Shown in pieces: positions 1 through 6,125 of a stretch of DNA of 9,306 nucleotides. Position 1 is the first letter of the stretch. The number at the start of each line of letters is the position of its first letter. Where the stretch lies: positions 1 through 9,306 of IMG/VR virus record IMGVR_UViG_3300013942_000118, one strand, 5' to 3'. The translations under genes were made by a program, and so were the position numbers. A model generated the notes under the pieces. The model ran no database searches, had not been told where the DNA came from, and saw nothing but the letters and a program-made list of their open reading frames with translations. Source of the stretch: a virus (lineage: Duplodnaviria; Heunggongvirae; Uroviricota; Caudoviricetes).

Positions 1-825
1 TCACCCGGTGAAAGTACCAATAAAGGTTTCTACTTTGCTGTCTTTGAATTTTTCAACAAGCAGATCACGAAATTCGTTAGCCATTTCTTCCTGCACTGCT
101 TCCAGCTGAATAATGCGCAGAACCAGTACAGGGCGATCACCAGTGATAATGCTGAGGCGTAATTTAAACGGACGTTCTTTCAGGCCTTCAAACGGAACGC
201 ATTTAAACTCAAATGCTACTGGCATAATGTCTTTGGTTTTCGCTTCGACAGACTCCATCAGAGAGCGTTTGCCGCTGAAGTCATTGTCTTCAAAATCAGC
301 GGTCTGGTTTGCTTCAATCGTGATTTTACGGACCGCCGCAGCCGCTTTTGTTGCCTGAATGGCGTCACCATTAGCATCAAAGCCCACAAGGTAGTCGGCC
401 CAGTCTTCAATCCATTCTGCCAGTGACTTCTGGGAGTTACGCTCGCCGTTAACAGACAACAGGGCAGAGAACGGTGCTGTCTTTTTCAGTTTGAGAGTGG
501 CGGTGTTATCTGCGTGACCTGGTTCATCAATAGTACCCAGGTTAAGCATACTGACGGCTCGCATATTATCAGCATCGATAAAGCAGCGGGTGCCTTCATC
601 TGCAAGATCTTTAGAATAACGGGTAAAGTCATCGATGCTGGCAGTGGAAAGCGCACCACGGAAACGGAAGCGATTTAAATTAAATTTTTCCAGATCATGA
701 ATGCGGAAATTCTCAGGCAATGCCACAGCATCGGCACCAATCTTACTGATAATTTCATTAACACCCTGAGCAGAAATAAGGGCATGGATTTGATTAATTG
801 CGGTTGCGTCTAAGTTCTGAGACAT
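1..825 (-). CDS. yfdQ: DUF2303-family prophage protein (YfdQ-like), 274 aa
   Basis: Complete minus-strand ORF: ATG at 825-823, TGA at 3-1, GAGGA Shine-Dalgarno 6 nt upstream (complement of 833-837). Family assignment is from memory of YfdQ/DUF2303 in CPS-53-like prophages; no search run. Confidence 0.8.
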
Positions 826-890
826 AATAAGTCCTCACTATATAAAGATATTCAGTGATGAGATAAATAATCAGTTTATTAAAAACGATA

Positions 891-1253
891 TTAACGACCT
901 GCTGCGCGGAGTTTTCCGTCAGGTTCACCGGCAAGAGTCAGTAATTGTCCCTGGTCTTCCTGCAGAATAGTCAGGCGACCACCGCGATTGACATACATCG
1001 GCGTTTCGGTGGTGTCTTCTTCGGAAATTTTCCCGCGGTTAGTCGGGCGAACATATGAGAGTTTGTGTTTGATTTTTACACGGTTCTCATCAAACGGTTC
1101 GATTTCCAGGTTGAGCGAGACCTTACCTTTGGTTTTCGTGTTCATCACACCGGAAGCGACTTCACTGAGAACTGCGCCGATTTTGGTTTCAAATACGCCG
1201 CCGTCCAGCTCCCCGATAAATGCCTGCACATCAGTACTGCGTTCGCTAGCCAT
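891..1253 (-). CDS. Small prophage early protein, 120 aa (YfdP-like by recollection); start chosen at internal ATG
   Basis: The 226-aa track ORF has an Arg/Cys-rich, non-protein-like N-terminal 106 codons. The ATG at 1253-1251 (MASERSTDV...) has a GGGGAG Shine-Dalgarno 7 nt upstream and gives 120 aa directly upstream of, and co-oriented with, the DUF2303 gene. Stop TAA at 893-891. Confidence 0.65.
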   Translation of the reverse strand: MASERSTDVQAFIGELDGGVFETKIGAVLSEVASGVMNTKTKGKVSLNLEIEPFDENRVKIKHKLSYVRPTNRGKISEEDTTETPMYVNRGGRLTILQEDQGQLLTLAGEPDGKLRAAGR

Positions 1254-1271
1254 TTTGCTGCTCCCCATCAT

Positions 1272-1287
1272 ATCGACCCTGCAGGGT
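1272..1287. repeat. 16-bp perfect palindrome CGACCCTGCAGGGTCG in the leader of the leftward early operon
   Basis: Read directly from sequence; lies 19-34 nt upstream of the 120-aa gene start on the minus strand. Confidence 0.8.
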
Positions 1288-1302
1288 CGGTTGGTTTCTC
1301 CA

Positions 1303-1390
1303 CAAAACAGAGAAGAACACCTGCGGTGGCAGCCGCCCGGATGGATTGGGTTATGAGCCCGTCGTCCGGTGATGCTCTTCTCTGTTTTGT
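1303..1390. repeat. 15-bp perfect inverted repeat (ACAAAACAGAGAAGA / TCTTCTCTGTTTTGT) enclosing a 58-nt GC-rich loop
   Basis: Arms at 1303-1317 and 1376-1390 are exact reverse complements; read directly from sequence. Function unknown. Confidence 0.8.
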
Positions 1391-1722
1391 AAAAAGGACG
1401 GTACCAGCCGGAAGCAAGGGTACAAGCTGATACCGCCAGGACTACACACAGCATAAAGTTGTGGTGCCGGGTGCCTCCCGGTGCCTGGCGAAGGTTGCAC
1501 ACCAGGCGGGTGGGTATCCACAGAAGGTCGACTGTCAGCCTCAACCTTAACCCGCGTGCGCTGAGCCGCATTCACCACAACGCTAAGGATTCTCTCTGGT
1601 TGAAAATACTTAGCTGTTATGTGCCTGCTTTTAGCCACATCAGGCGAGGTGGACCTAGTTATTCCCCAACAACAAGGATTTGGTTAATCTGGATATCCCC
1701 AACAACTAGCTGAGTATTCAAC

Positions 1723-2244
1723 GTGATAGCTGAACTGTCTGCGGCTATGGCCGCTATAAAGGAGACTGCCGGTCTTGCTAAGGTTATTAATGACGCGAAA
1801 ACGGATGCAGAAGTTAAAGCTGCAACCATTGAACTCCAGAACAAACTAATCACGCTTCAGGCAGAATGCTTCTCTCTTGGCGATGCGATCCGCCTTCGTG
1901 ATGAAGAGGTGATGCATCTCAAAGCAAAAATTGCAGAGTTTGAAGATTTTTGTGCCAAGGTAGAAGGATATGTCCTTGATCAGCTTGACTCTGGTGCTTT
2001 TGTTTACTCTAAAAATGAAATTGTGAGTGGAAAAGAAATAACTGTGCATCTGTGCCCACTTTGTTATTCCAAAAATATAAAATCGATACTTCATCCGCTT
2101 CCAGTAGGTAAAACTTCTCATTTTCTTACAAGCCGTTGCCTTCACTGTGAAAATAAATTTCTTATGGAAAAAAATCCGATGTACGAACGACCAAGATCAT
2201 TACGTGAGTTGGGGCGAGATCTGAATTCGCCTTGGATTCCTTAA
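1723..2244 (+). CDS. Hypothetical protein with N-terminal coiled-coil and C-terminal CxxC-x25-CxxC zinc-ribbon, 173 aa from GTG 1723 (165 aa from ATG 1747)
   Basis: Clean ORF ending TAA 2242-2244 and followed by an intrinsic terminator. Markedly AT-rich compared with the flanking DNA, by eye. Heptad-like charged N-terminus, then HLCPLC...RCLHCE. No obvious Shine-Dalgarno or sigma70 promoter upstream. Transcribed convergently with the PL-like promoter. Confidence 0.55.
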   Translation: MIAELSAAMAAIKETAGLAKVINDAKTDAEVKAATIELQNKLITLQAECFSLGDAIRLRDEEVMHLKAKIAEFEDFCAKVEGYVLDQLDSGAFVYSKNEIVSGKEITVHLCPLCYSKNIKSILHPLPVGKTSHFLTSRCLHCENKFLMEKNPMYERPRSLRELGRDLNSPWIP

Positions 2245-2287
2245 ATCTTGCATTGGTTGGATGATACCCAGATTGTTAAAGAGCTAA

Positions 2288-2309
2288 GCGTCCTGTAGGG
2301 CGCTTTTTT
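2288..2309 (+). terminator. Rho-independent terminator downstream of the 173-aa ORF
   Basis: Stem GCGTCC (2288-2293) / GGGCGC (2298-2303) with one G-U pair, loop TGTA, followed by TTTTTT (2304-2309). Confidence 0.6.
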
Positions 2310-2388
2310 GTTGCTAACGAATCATCCTGGACTTCATATGCCCCAGGCGGATACTTCGTGGGCGTCCTGCCTGTTTGTTGTTTCTCTT

Positions 2389-2425
2389 GGGTACATTATG
2401 TATCTCAAAGGTACATTGTCAAGTA
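2389..2425 (-). promoter_or_regulatory. PL-like leftward promoter with GTAC-containing operator half-sites (OL-like)
   Basis: On the minus strand: TTGACA (complement of 2417-2422), 16-nt spacer, CATAAT (complement of 2395-2400). Overlapped by repeated GGTACATT motifs that match the GTAC cores of the operators at 3152-3223. Confidence 0.45.
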
Positions 2426-2449
2426 TAAAAAAACCTGCCGAAGCAGGTT
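2426..2449 (-). terminator. Rho-independent terminator of the repressor gene
   Basis: On the minus strand: stem CCTGC / GCAGG (plus 2434-2438 and 2443-2447), loop TTCG, followed by a U-run (plus A-run 2427-2433). Begins 13 nt after the repressor stop. Confidence 0.65.
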
Positions 2450-2461
2450 CATAAACATTGA

Positions 2462-3136
2462 TTAGGCTTTGATTTTGTATCTTCTTGGTTTTCCTGAGAA
2501 AATCACAGTTCCAATTATAGAGCAATTACCGTTGATCTTAATGTAAGGCTCAGGCCAGTTTGGGTTTAACGCTTTGAGATAACGCTGTGTCCCATCTTCT
2601 ATCAACCTTTTGAAGGTGGTTTCACCTGTATCGTGCATCAATGCAATAACGTCGTCACCGTGGCAGGCAGGTACTTCAGGATCGACAAAAATCATGTCTC
2701 CCGGGCGGTACTCATCAATCATTGAATCACCTATCACCCGCAAGATATAAGTCATTTCCCCACAGGGTACAGGGCAGGGATACGTTTCTGCTGTGCTCAA
2801 ATCAACCTCAGAATATCCAACTTCTTTCCATGCTCCGGCCTGTACCCATGATATGACAGGGACTAATGTGATTTGTTTATTAGTGATTGAAACATCAGGT
2901 TTTTTTGTGATGTTCGTTGTCTGGTGTTCTTGATCGAGCCATCCGACAGGCAGGTCGAAACATTTTTCGATGTGTCGTGCCATGCTGTCACCGATATTTT
3001 TAGTAGCACCATCTCCCATAAACCTGCTGGTCTGGGTTGGCTCGCGATCAATCATAGTGGCAAAGGAAGAATTCCCGCCAACACCATCTCTCAGTTTTCT
3101 GGCGTTAGACCGCCGGATGTCATGGATTGTTTTCAT
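2462..3136 (-). CDS. Prophage CI-like repressor, HTH plus S24 (LexA-like) autopeptidase domain, 224 aa
   Basis: ORF ATG 3136-3134 to TAA 2464-2462. C-terminal half carries an Ala-Gly candidate cleavage site (VQAGAW), the GDSM serine motif and a downstream Lys (TFKRL), typical of the LexA/cI S24 fold. Sits divergent from a Cro-like gene across a palindromic operator region. No Shine-Dalgarno before the ATG. Confidence 0.9.
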   Translation of the reverse strand: MKTIHDIRRSNARKLRDGVGGNSSFATMIDREPTQTSRFMGDGATKNIGDSMARHIEKCFDLPVGWLDQEHQTTNITKKPDVSITNKQITLVPVISWVQAGAWKEVGYSEVDLSTAETYPCPVPCGEMTYILRVIGDSMIDEYRPGDMIFVDPEVPACHGDDVIALMHDTGETTFKRLIEDGTQRYLKALNPNWPEPYIKINGNCSIIGTVIFSGKPRRYKIKA

Positions 3137-3226
3137 AACGAAATTAAAACCCTTGTACCGTTAAGGTACAAGTATCTTGAAGGTTCATTTCAATCATGTA
3201 ATATGTACACCGGAGGTACATATTGT
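3137..3226. promoter_or_regulatory. Divergent PRM/PR-type control region with two palindromic operators
   Basis: Operator 1 is CTTGTACC-N5-GGTACAAG (3152-3172); operator 2 is ATATGTAC-N7-GTACATAT (3201-3223). Candidate PR on plus: TTGAAG (3177-3182), 16-nt spacer, TAATAT (3199-3204), GGAGG Shine-Dalgarno 3212-3216, cro ATG 3227. Candidate PRM on minus: TTGTAC (complement of 3166-3171), 17-nt spacer, TTTAAT (complement of 3143-3148), ending about 6 nt before the repressor ATG. Confidence 0.6.
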
Positions 3227-3427
3227 ATGAAAGCGTATTGGGACTCTTTAACCAAAGAACAGCAGGGCGAGTTGGCCGGAAAAGTTGGCTCAACACCTAG
3301 CTACTTACGGCTGGTTTTCAATGGCTATAAAAAAGCCAGTTTTGTGCTGGCTAAAAAACTTGAGCAATGCACGTCAGGTGCAATTACGAAATCTGACTTA
3401 AGACCGGATATCTATCCGAAAGATTAG
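3227..3427 (+). CDS. Cro/YdaS-like small HTH regulator, 66 aa
   Basis: ATG at 3227 is in frame inside the longer track ORF and has a GGAGG Shine-Dalgarno 10 nt upstream; TAG at 3425-3427. Product MKAYWDSLTKEQQGELAGKVGSTPSYLRLVFNG... resembles YdaS/Cro-family HTH proteins. Divergent from the repressor. Confidence 0.8.
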   Translation: MKAYWDSLTKEQQGELAGKVGSTPSYLRLVFNGYKKASFVLAKKLEQCTSGAITKSDLRPDIYPKD

Positions 3428-3458
3428 CAGAACACTTTCAATTTTTAACCACAGAACG

Positions 3459-4022
3459 ATGAGGCTAATCGTGGGTAAGCATCACTGGAAAATAGAAAAA
3501 CAGCCTGAGTGGTACGTGAAAGCTGTCAGAAAAACTATCGCGGCGTTGCCGGGTGGTTACGCTGAAGCGGCTGACTGGCTGGATGTAACAGAGAACGCAT
3601 TATTTAACCGCCTTCGTGCCGATGGCGATCAGATTTTCCCGCTGGGATGGGCAATGATTTTGCAACGTGCTGGTGGAACTCACTTCATTGCTGACGCTGT
3701 GGCGCAGTCTGCAAATGGCGTCTTTGTGTCTCTTCCTGACGTCGAGGATGTGGACAACGCCGATATTAACCAGCGTCTGCTGGAAGTCATTGAACAGATC
3801 GGCAGTTATTCAAAACAGATTCGTTCAGCAATCGAAGACGGTGTAGTGGAACCGCATGAGAAGACAGCAATTAACGACGAGCTGTATCTCTCAATTTCGA
3901 AGCTGCAGGAGCATGCAGCACTGGTCTACAAAATCTTTTGCATTTCAGAAAGTAATGACGCCCGCGAGTGTGCAGCTCCGGGCGCCGTGGCGTGTCGTGA
4001 CTGTGGAGAAACTAACGCATGA
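3459..4022 (+). CDS. CII-like phage regulatory protein (CP76/YdaT-like family), 187 aa
   Basis: ORF immediately after the Cro-like gene, the usual position of cII/ydaT. Family assignment from memory, moderate. Start is uncertain: ATG 3459 has a weak Shine-Dalgarno, while in-frame GTG 3471 is preceded by GAGG. Stop overlaps the next ATG as ATGA. Confidence 0.65.
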
Positions 4023-4377
4023 ACAGTTTAACAACACACTACCGTCGCTCGCAACTGATTGCGCTTCCTGTACCGGGTGGAAAAGCGAAGGTGGAGTATT
4101 GCTATGCAGTTAATGTACCAGGTGACAGGGAAATTGTAACCCACAGCTTTGCTGAGTGGGCTGTGGGTGATTTCAACCGGCAGAAGGAGACAGTCCTTTG
4201 CGACAAGTTAACCGCTGGTTCAAAGATCACTACGGAGTGCCCGTCAGAGTCATTCGTTGGGAGCCGGAAACACAACGAGTTATCTACCTCCGCGAAGGCT
4301 ATGAGCATGAGTGCTTCAGCCCGCTCGAACAGTTTCGTCGTAAATTCAGGGAAATAGAGGTCGGTCATGAGCACTAA
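4019..4377 (+). pseudogene. Unknown early gene apparently split over two reading frames (one-base frameshift near 4170-4215), or a 112-aa ORF plus an overlapping 59-aa TTG-initiated ORF
   Basis: Frame of ATG 4019 gives a plausible N-terminus but a low-complexity Ser/Ala-rich tail to 4357. The -1 frame from about 4171 to TAA 4375-4377 reads ...[58 protein letters not shown], which looks like genuine protein and ends 8 nt into the next gene. No XXXYYYZ slippery heptamer seen. Confidence 0.4.
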
Positions 4378-5308
4378 ATTAACCGGCTATGTATGGGATG
4401 GTTGCGCTGCATCAGGCATGAAATTATCCAGCGTGGCAATTATGGCCCGCCTGGCTGATTTCAGTAATGACGAAGGTGTGTGCTGGCCATCAATTGAAAC
4501 TATTGCCCGTCAGATTGGCGCGGGGATGAGTACCGTCAGGACGGCTATCGCACGGCTGGAAGCAGAAGGCTGGTTAACGCGTAAGGCGCGTCGCCAGGGT
4601 AACCGCAATGCGTCGAATGTTTATCAGCTTAACGTTGCGAAGCTTCAGGCAGCGGCATTTTCTCAACTGTCAGATTCTGACCCGTCAAAATCTGACGCAT
4701 CAAAATCTGACCCGTCAAAATTTGATGCGTCGAAATCTGGCAAAAAAGCGGGTTTTCACCCGTCAGAATCTGGCGGGGATCCGTCAGTAAAATCAAAACA
4801 TGATCCGTCAGATAAAAAACCTTCTCGTCCGGACGCTTCGCAACCGGACACGCAGACGGATGAACAGGATTTTTTAACTCGCCATCCTGATGCGGTTGTA
4901 TTCAGCCCTAAAAAGCGCCAGTGGGGAACGCAGGATGATTTGACCTGCGCACAGTGGCTCTGGAAAAAAATCATCGCCCTGTACGAGCAAGCCGCCGCAT
5001 GTGACGGCGAGGTGGTTCGTCCCAAAGAACCGAACTGGACAGCCTGGGCAAACGAAATTCGCCTGATGTGTGTACAGGATGGTCGTACTCACAAACAAAT
5101 CTGCGAGATGTACAGCCGCGTCAGCCGCGATCCGTTCTGGTGCCGTAACGTGCTCAGCCCGTCGAAGTTGCGGGAAAAATGGGATGAGCTTTCCCTGCGC
5201 TTATCACCGTCCGTCAGCACGTACACCGAAAAACGCGAAGACCCGTACTTCAAATCCAGTTACGACAACGTGGACTACAGCCAGATCCCGGCAGGATTCA
5301 GGGGGTGA
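4367..5308 (+). CDS. Replication initiator (lambda O-like: N-terminal winged-helix DNA-binding domain, acidic/Ser-Pro-rich linker, C-terminal domain), 313 aa
   Basis: ATG 4367 with GAGG Shine-Dalgarno 6 nt upstream; TGA 5306-5308. N-terminal region resembles phage replication-initiator HTH domains. An iteron array lies inside the coding sequence, as for ori in lambda O. Sits at the O position of the early-right operon. Confidence 0.75.
   Translation: MSTKLTGYVWDGCAASGMKLSSVAIMARLADFSNDEGVCWPSIETIARQIGAGMSTVRTAIARLEAEGWLTRKARRQGNRNASNVYQLNVAKLQAAAFSQLSDSDPSKSDASKSDPSKFDASKSGKKAGFHPSESGGDPSVKSKHDPSDKKPSRPDASQPDTQTDEQDFLTRHPDAVVFSPKKRQWGTQDDLTCAQWLWKKIIALYEQAAACDGEVVRPKEPNWTAWANEIRLMCVQDGRTHKQICEMYSRVSRDPFWCRNVLSPSKLREKWDELSLRLSPSVSTYTEKREDPYFKSSYDNVDYSQIPAGFRG
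4669..4740. repeat. Iteron-like tandem array (about 5 units of 14-15 bp, consensus near CCGTCAAAATCTGA), putative phage origin
   Basis: Units GTCAGATTCTGAC (4669), GTCAAAATCTGAC (4684), ATCAAAATCTGAC (4698), GTCAAAATTTGAT (4714), GTCGAAATCTGGC (4728). Degenerate CCGTCAG copies continue to about 4815. Several units are internally palindromic. The array encodes the DPSKSDASKSDPSKFDASKS repeat in the initiator. Confidence 0.6.
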
Positions 5309-5310
5309 TC

Positions 5311-5799
5311 ATGAGTCTGTTAAATGACGTTCAGAAATTCATTGAAGCCCATCCGGGGTGTACTTCCGGAGACATTGCGGATGCTTTTGCAGGTTACTCA
5401 CGGCAGCGCGTTCTGCAGTCTGCAAGCAAGTTACGTCAGAGTGGGCGTGTGGCTCACCGTTGTGAAGGAGATACACGCAGACATTTCCCGCGCCTGACTG
5501 AGAGAGCGCAGGAGCCGGAACCACAACCAGTTCGTGAAACCAGACCTGTGCGCAATTTCTATGTCGGCACTAACGATCCACGGGTGATTTTGTGCCTGAC
5601 CCGCCAGGCTGAAGAACTGGAGTCCAGGGGCTTATACCGTCGTGCTGCAACGGTGTGGATGGCGGCATTCCGTGAAAGCCACTCCCAGCCAGAACGAAAC
5701 AATTTTCTGGCGCGTCGTGAACGGTGTTTACGGAAAAGCAGTAAGCGGGCTGCATCGGGTGAAGAGTGGTATCTGTCAGGGAATTACGTGGGGGCGTAA
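5311..5799 (+). CDS. PerC-family-like transcriptional regulator with an N-terminal HTH-like extension, 162 aa
   Basis: ATG 5311 with GGGGG Shine-Dalgarno 5 nt upstream (the track start GTG 5305 overlaps the previous stop). C-terminal segment AEELESRGLYRRAATVWMAAFRE...RRERCL resembles the PerC/Pch signature. From memory only, moderate. Confidence 0.55.
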   Translation: MSLLNDVQKFIEAHPGCTSGDIADAFAGYSRQRVLQSASKLRQSGRVAHRCEGDTRRHFPRLTERAQEPEPQPVRETRPVRNFYVGTNDPRVILCLTRQAEELESRGLYRRAATVWMAAFRESHSQPERNNFLARRERCLRKSSKRAASGEEWYLSGNYVGA

Positions 5800-6125
5800 T
5801 GACGACGTTAACTCAATGCCAGCAGCAGGTGCTGGATATGCTGATTTCTTATCAGAAAGAGCGTGGCTTTCCGCCAACCAATCAGGAGGTGGCAACCATG
5901 CTGGGATACCGTTCGGTGAATGCAGCGGTGGAGCATCTTCGCGCACTGGAGAAAAAAGGCGTCATCACGATAAAGCGTGGCGTGGCACGGGGGATAACGC
6001 TTCATACCGCTGTGAAGGACGACGACAGCGAGGCGGTCGGGATTATCCGCGCACTGCTTGCCGGTGAGGAAAACGCCAGGCTGCGTGCAGCCCACTGGTT
6101 ACATGAGAGGGGCCTGAAAGTATGA
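5799..6125 (+). CDS. LexA N-terminal DNA-binding-domain paralogue lacking the S24 peptidase domain, 108 aa
   Basis: Start ATG 5799 overlaps the upstream stop (TAATG). LTQCQQQVLDMLISYQKERGFPPTNQEVATMLGYRSVNAAVEHLRALEKKGVITIKRGVARGITL aligns by eye with E. coli LexA residues about 4-68 at roughly half identity. The protein stops after about 40 further residues with no peptidase motifs. Confidence 0.8.
   Translation: MTTLTQCQQQVLDMLISYQKERGFPPTNQEVATMLGYRSVNAAVEHLRALEKKGVITIKRGVARGITLHTAVKDDDSEAVGIIRALLAGEENARLRAAHWLHERGLKV

Follow-up and report, generated by a model that had tools for sequence, protein, structure and literature searches.

The 9,306-nucleotide stretch of DNA analysed here (the window; positions 1 to 9,306 of IMG/VR virus record IMGVR_UViG_3300013942_000118, a member of the Caudoviricetes) is the early region of a lambdoid prophage of the SfV/e14/CPS-53 type, and at positions 5311..5799 of its + strand it carries a gene for a 162-residue protein of the PerC family. 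We identify this gene, with very high confidence, as an intact orthologue of yfdN from the CPS-53 prophage of Escherichia coli K-12 and as a long-form member of the PerC family. A first-pass annotation, made from the sequence alone, had read the gene as a PerC-like regulator through which the induction state of the prophage might be linked to host virulence regulons, and had not recognised it as the named and annotated yfdN. The feature is already known, and yfdN is among the commonest E. coli prophage genes.

The reading frame opens with an ATG at 5311 and closes with a TAA at 5797-5799, as read from the list of open reading frames (ORFs) and the sequence; an alternative GTG start at 5305, which is the start used by the Prokaryotic Genome Annotation Pipeline (PGAP), would give a product of 164 residues. 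A Shine-Dalgarno sequence for the ATG, AGGGGG, can be read at 5299..5304 on the same strand, within the final codons of the upstream replication gene, rep. The encoded protein falls into four parts: a predicted N-terminal winged helix-turn-helix (HTH) domain (residues 1-62, 5311..5496), a variable linker rich in proline and glutamate that is predicted to be disordered (residues 63-89, 5497..5577), a three-helix domain of PerC/ANR type (residues 90-149, 5578..5757), and a C-terminal tail (residues 150-162, 5758..5796) with the motif W153-x-L155-S-G157-x-Y159-V-G161. Both domains are basic, with a pI of 9.8 for the N-terminal and 11.3 for the C-terminal domain.

Membership in the PerC family rests on several comparisons. 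The Pfam PerC model (PF06069) matches residues 98-149 (nt 5602-5757) over model positions 5-56 of 90, with an E value of 7.7e-9 and a score of 36.1 bits against a gathering threshold of 22.6. The PerC/Pch signature that the first-pass annotation had seen in the segment AEELESRGLYRRAATVWMAAFRE...RRERCL (residues 100-140), and for which it had named a search with this Pfam model as a check, is thus borne out, at a level far above chance. BLASTP against PerC of enteropathogenic E. coli (EPEC) strain E2348/69, encoded on plasmid pMAR2, gives 17 identities in 46 positions (37%; E 1e-6), and the two proteins share the core A-x2-L-E-x2-G-[LF]-[YW]-R-R-A-A-x2-W...E-R...R-x2-C. An alignment of 31 sequences that includes PerC shows no variation at residues L103, R111 and A112 and almost none at A100, A113 and C139. 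The NCBIfam ANR model (NF033650) also matches, over residues 96-142 (E 3.4e-5), with a score of 23.6 bits that lies below its curated cut-off of 32. Among the PHROGs, phrog_1324, 'transcriptional activator', matches the protein over residues 1-161 (E 1.3e-78), and the N-terminal domain gives a weak match to 'Ren-like exclusion protein' (E 0.014). A comparison with the PADLOC defence models returned a single match, to GajB (E 0.0094), in which no single stretch passed the threshold, and gave no link to defence.

The identification as yfdN is equally consistent. By megablast, 2674 of 5426 complete E. coli genomes carry the gene, for the most part with 95-99% identity, and copies to which PGAP gives the label "yfdN: PerC family transcriptional regulator" are 99-99.8% identical to it in DNA sequence; across close phage and genome copies the range is 97-99.8%. 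The gene is found in 49 phage records, among them those of mEp460 and Ayreon and of many Stx2c and Stx2a phages. At the protein level, thousands of sequences listed by NCBI as 'PerC family transcriptional regulator' are 93-100% identical to the window protein, and protein searches recovered clusters of thousands in E. coli and others in Salmonella, Citrobacter and Hafnia. A scan of genome contigs returned five loci, all from E. coli or Shigella except for one contaminant contig. A 326-bp contig (JBLKRX010000125.1; our locus L124) from an assembly of Fredinandcohnia humi, of the Bacillales, codes for a peptide that matches the C-terminal part of YfdN at 97% identity; it is almost certainly E. 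coli DNA that contaminates the assembly.

Predicted domains and known relatives

To model the protein we used AlphaFold2 (AF2) with an alignment of 17 sequences, from which EPEC PerC was left out. In the N-terminal domain, the model places helices at residues 3-13, 19-25 and 31-44 and strands at 47-52 and 55-60, with a predicted local distance difference test (pLDDT) score of 86-92. This H-H-H-E-E topology is that of winged helix-turn-helix domains of the BlaI/MecI, MarR and ArsR type, and profile comparisons with the PDB point the same way, with matches to BlaI (E 5e-4), a PapI-type P-fimbrial regulator (4e-3), MecI (5e-3) and also MarR. Foldseek likewise superposes the domain on ArsR/SmtB/MarR folds, with a root-mean-square deviation (rmsd) of ~2-3 Å over ~60 residues. 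None of the HTH models in Pfam reaches threshold on this domain. On the strength of the model, the domain is best described as a winged helix that is predicted to bind DNA, and the HTH-like region that the first-pass annotation had suspected from the sequence is thus matched by a confident model (pLDDT ~90) and by both kinds of comparison.

The linker that follows differs in length and sequence among homologues, and residues 63-84 have pLDDT values <50. Since a full-length Foldseek search against the PDB matched only generic winged helices, the C-terminal domain was modelled separately; its three helices (residues 90-149) are confidently predicted, and the tail is left unstructured. In a viral structure library, this domain superposes on a 60-residue phage protein annotated as an "ANR family transcriptional regulator" with a template-modelling (TM) score of 0.93 and an rmsd of 0.6 Å, in agreement with the sub-threshold NCBIfam ANR match. 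It also superposes on tetratricopeptide repeat (TPR) and MIT units, and with ~1.5 TPR-like repeats its modelled fold may be of a peptide-binding type. Searches of Pfam, NCBIfam, the PHROGs, the PDB and BFVD gave no match between YfdN and helicase loaders of the lambda P or DnaC-like/AAA+ kind.

An exhaustive search with the C-terminal domain recovered many proteins of 138-161 residues that have the same two-domain layout and are 36-54% identical within the domain, together with short forms of 62-95 residues that resemble PerC and Pch. The long forms have in common an N-terminal pattern, MSL..V..FI..NPG.T..EIA.AF, and a tail motif, W-x-L-[SA]-G-x-[YF]-x-G, which persists in long forms of as little as 23% identity and also in some short forms. 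In YfdN this motif occupies residues 153-161 (5767-5793), and could be a short linear motif that serves self-association or recognition by a partner. The PerC family is otherwise one of small single-domain proteins, and with its winged helix, linker and tail the 162-residue YfdN departs from that description. Judged by sequence, the 'long form' of PerC is a distinct conserved subfamily.

The nearest relatives of the window protein are YfdN of K-12 (CPS-53, also called KpLE1), SfV orf40, mEp460_044 and the members of phrog_1324, which have the same length, the same two domains and the same position after a replication gene; between these orthologues and the window protein we see no difference of substance. 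In many yfdN copies a Dam methylase gene is inserted before the downstream neighbour, whereas in the window a gene for a LexA DNA-binding domain (LexA-N) follows directly. More distant are PerC of EPEC (plasmid pEAF/pMAR2) and PchA, PchB and PchC of enterohaemorrhagic E. coli (EHEC), which share PF06069 and the core motif with the window protein and, like it, are basic, have small helical domains and are encoded on horizontally acquired elements. PerC (89 residues) and the products of the 315-bp pchABC genes are, however, single-domain proteins, and perC is AT-rich (35% GC), whereas the window copy of yfdN has a GC content of 54%, similar to that of its neighbours, and is embedded in an early operon. 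PchA has been reported to relieve silencing by H-NS/StpA/Hha at LEE1, an operon within the LEE, or locus of enterocyte effacement, and to bind DNA at many loci, and contact between Pch and H-NS was not detected in that work (PMC4764244).

Other PerC-family proteins do not behave alike. PchA, PchB and PchC raise ler expression at least 4-fold, PchE <2-fold and PchD not at all. Of the PerC-like proteins encoded by phage-inducible chromosomal islands (PICIs), those of EcCIEDL933 and EcCICFT073 left the activity of a LEE1-lacZ fusion unchanged, and EcCIMP1_025 represses LEE1, for which its authors suspect ANR-like behaviour. PchD, PchE and the PICI proteins are akin to the window protein in being PerC-family members carried by mobile elements; the PICI genes are accessory genes of satellites, whereas yfdN in the window is a gene of the phage replication and early operon. 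PerC-family membership therefore does not predict LEE activation, effects being absent, minimal or repressive in PchD, PchE and the PICI members.

Proteins of the ANR family, such as Aar, have the same three-helix fold as the C-terminal domain of YfdN, but they are small single-domain proteins with no DNA-binding domain, whereas the window protein has a winged helix. ANR proteins reportedly act through protein-protein contact. The EcCIMP1 study describes them as repressors. Regulators of the RRNPP type, such as PlcR, Rap and AimR, also combine an HTH domain with TPRs, but they have 5-9 repeats where YfdN has ~1.5, their HTH is of the Xre type where that of YfdN is a winged helix, and no peptide gene is evident. 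The likeness to these regulators is one of architecture rather than demonstrated homology.

The early operon and the initiator tail

The order of genes in the window is yfdQ and an S24 CI-like repressor gene on the - strand, followed by cro, a cII-like gene of the ymfL type, a ymfM-like ORF, a DUF4222 gene, the O-like rep, yfdN, LexA-N, rusA, kilA-N, a DUF968 gene, the antiterminator gene Q and orfA of an IS3-family insertion sequence (IS). From cro to Q the + strand genes form a gap-free array, and a scan of 3338-6490 revealed no promoter-like site and no terminator-like site on the + strand. The stop codon of rep lies 2 nt upstream of the yfdN ATG. At its other end, yfdN overlaps the following start codon with its own stop (TAATG); yfdN is translationally coupled between rep and LexA-N. 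The position inside a replication/nin-like operon, as first read from the sequence, therefore stands, and yfdN is a core early-operon gene rather than an AT-rich add-on, or 'moron', like perC.

The repressor gene (2462..3136, - strand) encodes a CI-like protein with an S24 peptidase domain (Pfam Peptidase_S24, E 1.5e-26; 'LexA family protein' of the ymfK type in PGAP), and it presumably holds yfdN and the rest of the early right operon silent in the lysogen. The rightward operon begins with the cro-like gene (3227..3427, + strand), which gives sub-threshold matches to Pfam HTH_3 and YdaS_toxin and is labelled a Cro/CI family regulator by PGAP; further along, the ymfM-like ORF (4019..4357, 112 residues, phrog_1170) adjoins the ymfL-type cII-like gene. 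The O-like initiator (4367..5308, + strand, 313 residues) matches Pfam HTH_36 and, weakly, DnaD_N, and falls in phrog_391, 'replication initiation O-like' (E 1e-135). Within rep, Tandem Repeats Finder detects iteron-like 15-bp direct repeats at 4676..4739 (+ strand; period 15, 4.3 copies, consensus TCTGACCCGTCAAAA), and these are probably the phage origin, lying within the initiator gene as in lambda. Degenerate copies of the repeat extend to ~4815 and give way to an A/T-rich stretch; in the protein, the repeats encode a low-complexity linker, DPSKSDASKS. Directly after yfdN, the LexA-N gene (5799..6125, + strand, 108 residues) encodes a LexA DNA-binding domain alone (Pfam LexA_DNA_bind, E 2.9e-19) and lacks both an S24 peptidase and a dimerisation domain. 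The related phages that we examined retain it in the same operon, and its product could be an uncleavable competitor for SOS boxes.

The position of yfdN directly downstream of an O-like rep in an operon of the SfV/CPS-53 type is that expected of its orthologous group, and the same position is held in mEp460, in E. coli MEI008 and in phage contigs from IMG/VR in which identity to the window's YfdN falls to 23-35%. The C-terminal peptide of the window initiator is IPAGFRG, encoded at 5285-5305, and in all loci in which both genes can be read (L004-L088 and L126-L205) the initiator before a YfdN-type gene ends in I-P-x-G-F-R-G, with near variants ending ...VPEGFRS in L086-L088 and ...GFRVSGGAQ in L029. 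The tail is found across two N-terminal and two C-terminal types of initiator domain. Its codons vary synonymously (ATC/ATT for isoleucine, CCG/CCT/CCA for proline, GGA/GGC/GGT/GGG for glycine and AGG/AGA/CGG/CGC for arginine), which argues that selection acts on the peptide itself, beyond any constraint from the yfdN Shine-Dalgarno sequence. We considered whether the tail is conserved solely as that Shine-Dalgarno sequence and rejected the idea, as I, P, G, F and R are kept despite synonymous changes that include CGC-GGA, a poor Shine-Dalgarno sequence.

Of the 78 loci that carry the tail and extend far enough downstream, 76 show a YfdN-type ORF directly after it; the other two (L140 and L184) have lost yfdN by deletion, which in L140 extends into the methylase gene. 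YfdN itself varies far more than its surroundings. Between one related locus (L069) and the window, identity is 86% for CI and 53% for rep but just 28% for YfdN, which suggests that YfdN diverges much faster than its neighbours, through either diversifying selection or frequent module swapping. Among the IMG/VR loci we found no link between YfdN type and either immunity type or initiator N-terminal type, and one locus (L030) combines a P0134-type YfdN with an MSTKL-type rep.

Readings of YfdN function

In the literature searched we found no experimental study of yfdN function, and searches on PF06069, the PerC domain and phrog_1324 brought up nothing functional. Indirect mentions report a glycogen-deficient phenotype on yfdN overexpression, a place in a predicted "negative regulation of transcription" subnetwork of a deep-learning interactome, and a listing alongside adjacent prophage genes in a nitric-oxide transcriptome. 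A UTI89 fragment that induces filamentation contains five genes including yfdN2, and the effect was not assigned to yfdN2. In one paper, yfdN is called 'the K12 unique PerC homologue' and was deleted from a K-12 ler::lacZ reporter strain built with cloned O157:H7 ler promoter DNA (PMC5931665).

Taken as a whole, the evidence is best explained by a yfdN orthologue that acts as an early-operon modulator, an account to which we give about an even chance. Its more specific part, in which YfdN modulates transcription or nucleoid structure through its winged helix and PerC module, draws on analogy with characterised relatives and is a tentative proposal, somewhat short of even. According to this proposal, yfdN would be expressed only when the S24-type CI repressor is inactivated, in the SOS response or at induction, or during infection. 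The winged helix would then place YfdN on DNA, by analogy with Pch and ANR proteins, and the PerC module might alter a nucleoprotein or regulator complex there, either by relieving silencing of the H-NS/StpA/Hha type or by binding another regulator. The outcome would be changed transcription of phage genes, and possibly of host genes, in early lytic development. Whether YfdN activates or represses, and at which targets, cannot be read from its sequence.

One alternative is that raised by the first-pass annotation, that YfdN is a virulence activator like PerC and PchABC and on induction directly turns on ler (LEE1), and with it type III secretion, in a LEE-bearing host. Membership of the Pfam PerC family with a conserved core motif, and the presence of close gene copies in Stx2c and Stx2a phages, are consistent with such a role, and the deletion of yfdN from the ler::lacZ reporter strain suggests that its authors considered interference possible (PMC5931665). 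Identity to PerC is, however, just 37% over 46 residues, relatives that keep the short form of PerC (PchD, PchE and the PICI proteins) barely affect ler, are inert or repress LEE1, and yfdN is a GC-normal gene of a core operon, unlike the AT-rich moron perC. The K-12 strain of E. coli has no LEE, and because yfdN is present in K-12 and in 2674 of the 5426 genomes searched, LEE cannot be its general target. We regard direct activation of ler as very improbable, and a LEE-specific role as unlikely to be the function under selection. Somewhat better placed, though still unlikely, is an ANR-like anti-activator or repressor, whose three-helix domain would bind and neutralise a regulator of the AraC family or the H-NS type, with net repression of host or phage genes. 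For this speak the NCBIfam ANR match, the near-identity in fold to a phage ANR-family protein, the ANR-like repression suggested for EcCIMP1_025, and the subnetwork in which the interactome places YfdN. Against it, the ANR score falls short of its cut-off, whereas the PerC score exceeds its own, ANR proteins lack the added winged helix, and no regulator has been identified as a partner.

The linkage to the initiator raises another alternative, in which YfdN is a replication accessory and a positional analogue of lambda P or Ren, with the PerC domain docking either to the initiator, at its IPxGFRG peptide, or to a host replisome protein, and helping or regulating origin firing. In all related loci where both genes are readable yfdN comes right after an O-like rep, with overlapping or nearly overlapping junctions, and this adjacency holds down to 23% YfdN identity and with mosaic N- and C-terminal rep domains; the 76 tail-bearing loci with a YfdN-type ORF downstream and the persistence of the peptide through synonymous codon change fit the same idea. 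Further support comes from the early regions of the window, MEI008 and mEp460, in which no helicase or loader gene is annotated, from the possibly peptide-binding type of the C-terminal fold, and from the weak match to a Ren-like exclusion protein, as lambda ren occupies the same position. On the other side, YfdN does not resemble any known loader, primase or helicase, the characterised members of the PerC family modulate transcription, and two loci have deleted yfdN. The adjacency could also reflect inheritance of a module within one phage lineage, conservation of the tail could in part serve the Shine-Dalgarno sequence of yfdN, and phage replication modules with a single initiator and no loader have reportedly been described. 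We consider a replication role doubtful, slightly more so than ANR-like repression. A bolder version holds that long-form PerC proteins are primarily initiator partners and not transcription factors, that the PerC domain reads IPxGFRG, its own W-x-L-S-G-x-Y-x-G tail or both, so tying the firing of the origin to a DNA site that the winged helix occupies, and that the short PerC, Pch and ANR virulence regulators are domesticated fragments of a replication-coupled phage module; this is a long shot.

As about half of all complete E. coli genomes carry yfdN, and Stx phages do too, an effect on H-NS-silenced genes during SOS induction, if it exists, would be widespread. Members of the family range from activators to repressors, and for this reason it is unsafe to name such genes virulence activators or to infer a link to LEE from the name. 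The linkage to the initiator and the two conserved C-terminal peptides offer leads to what the PerC fold binds. As it stands, the first-pass annotation was an ordinary and correctly guessed one, sound on every structural point; as a general role, the virulence link that it suggested is improbable.

State of this copy

The prophage in the window is decaying or defective, and the yfdN ORF is itself intact. Compared with E. coli MEI008, yfdN differs at 1 of 495 nt, rep at 2 of 942 and LexA-N at none of 327. By comparison with an intact orthologue, the Q gene (8326..8697) carries an in-frame TGA at 8485-8487 in place of TGC, and late-gene activation should be lost because of this stop. Set against the intact 329-residue orthologue of MEI008, the DUF968 gene (7308..8302) carries a +1 insertion at 7757 and lacks 2 nt at 8094; it is either a pseudogene or the product of sequencing errors. 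Downstream, orfA of the IS3-family element (8998..9306), the N-terminal part of a transposase, starts ~300 nt after Q and continues past the end of the window, and insertion of this element may have truncated the late region of the prophage.

Such decay invites the view that yfdN here is a functionless passenger, an ORF merely still intact in a dying prophage with a stop in Q, two frameshifts in DUF968 and an IS element behind them. The gene is, however, 1 of 495 nt away from copies in many genomes, and rep and LexA-N are equally intact; the argument would in any case concern this copy and not the function of the family. Of the readings considered, we give this one the least credence. A run of 10 N at 6369..6378, inside rusA, looks like an assembly gap or masking, as alignment with the intact gene indicates that sequence is missing here. 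The window as a whole is at best ~95% identical to any complete E. coli genome.
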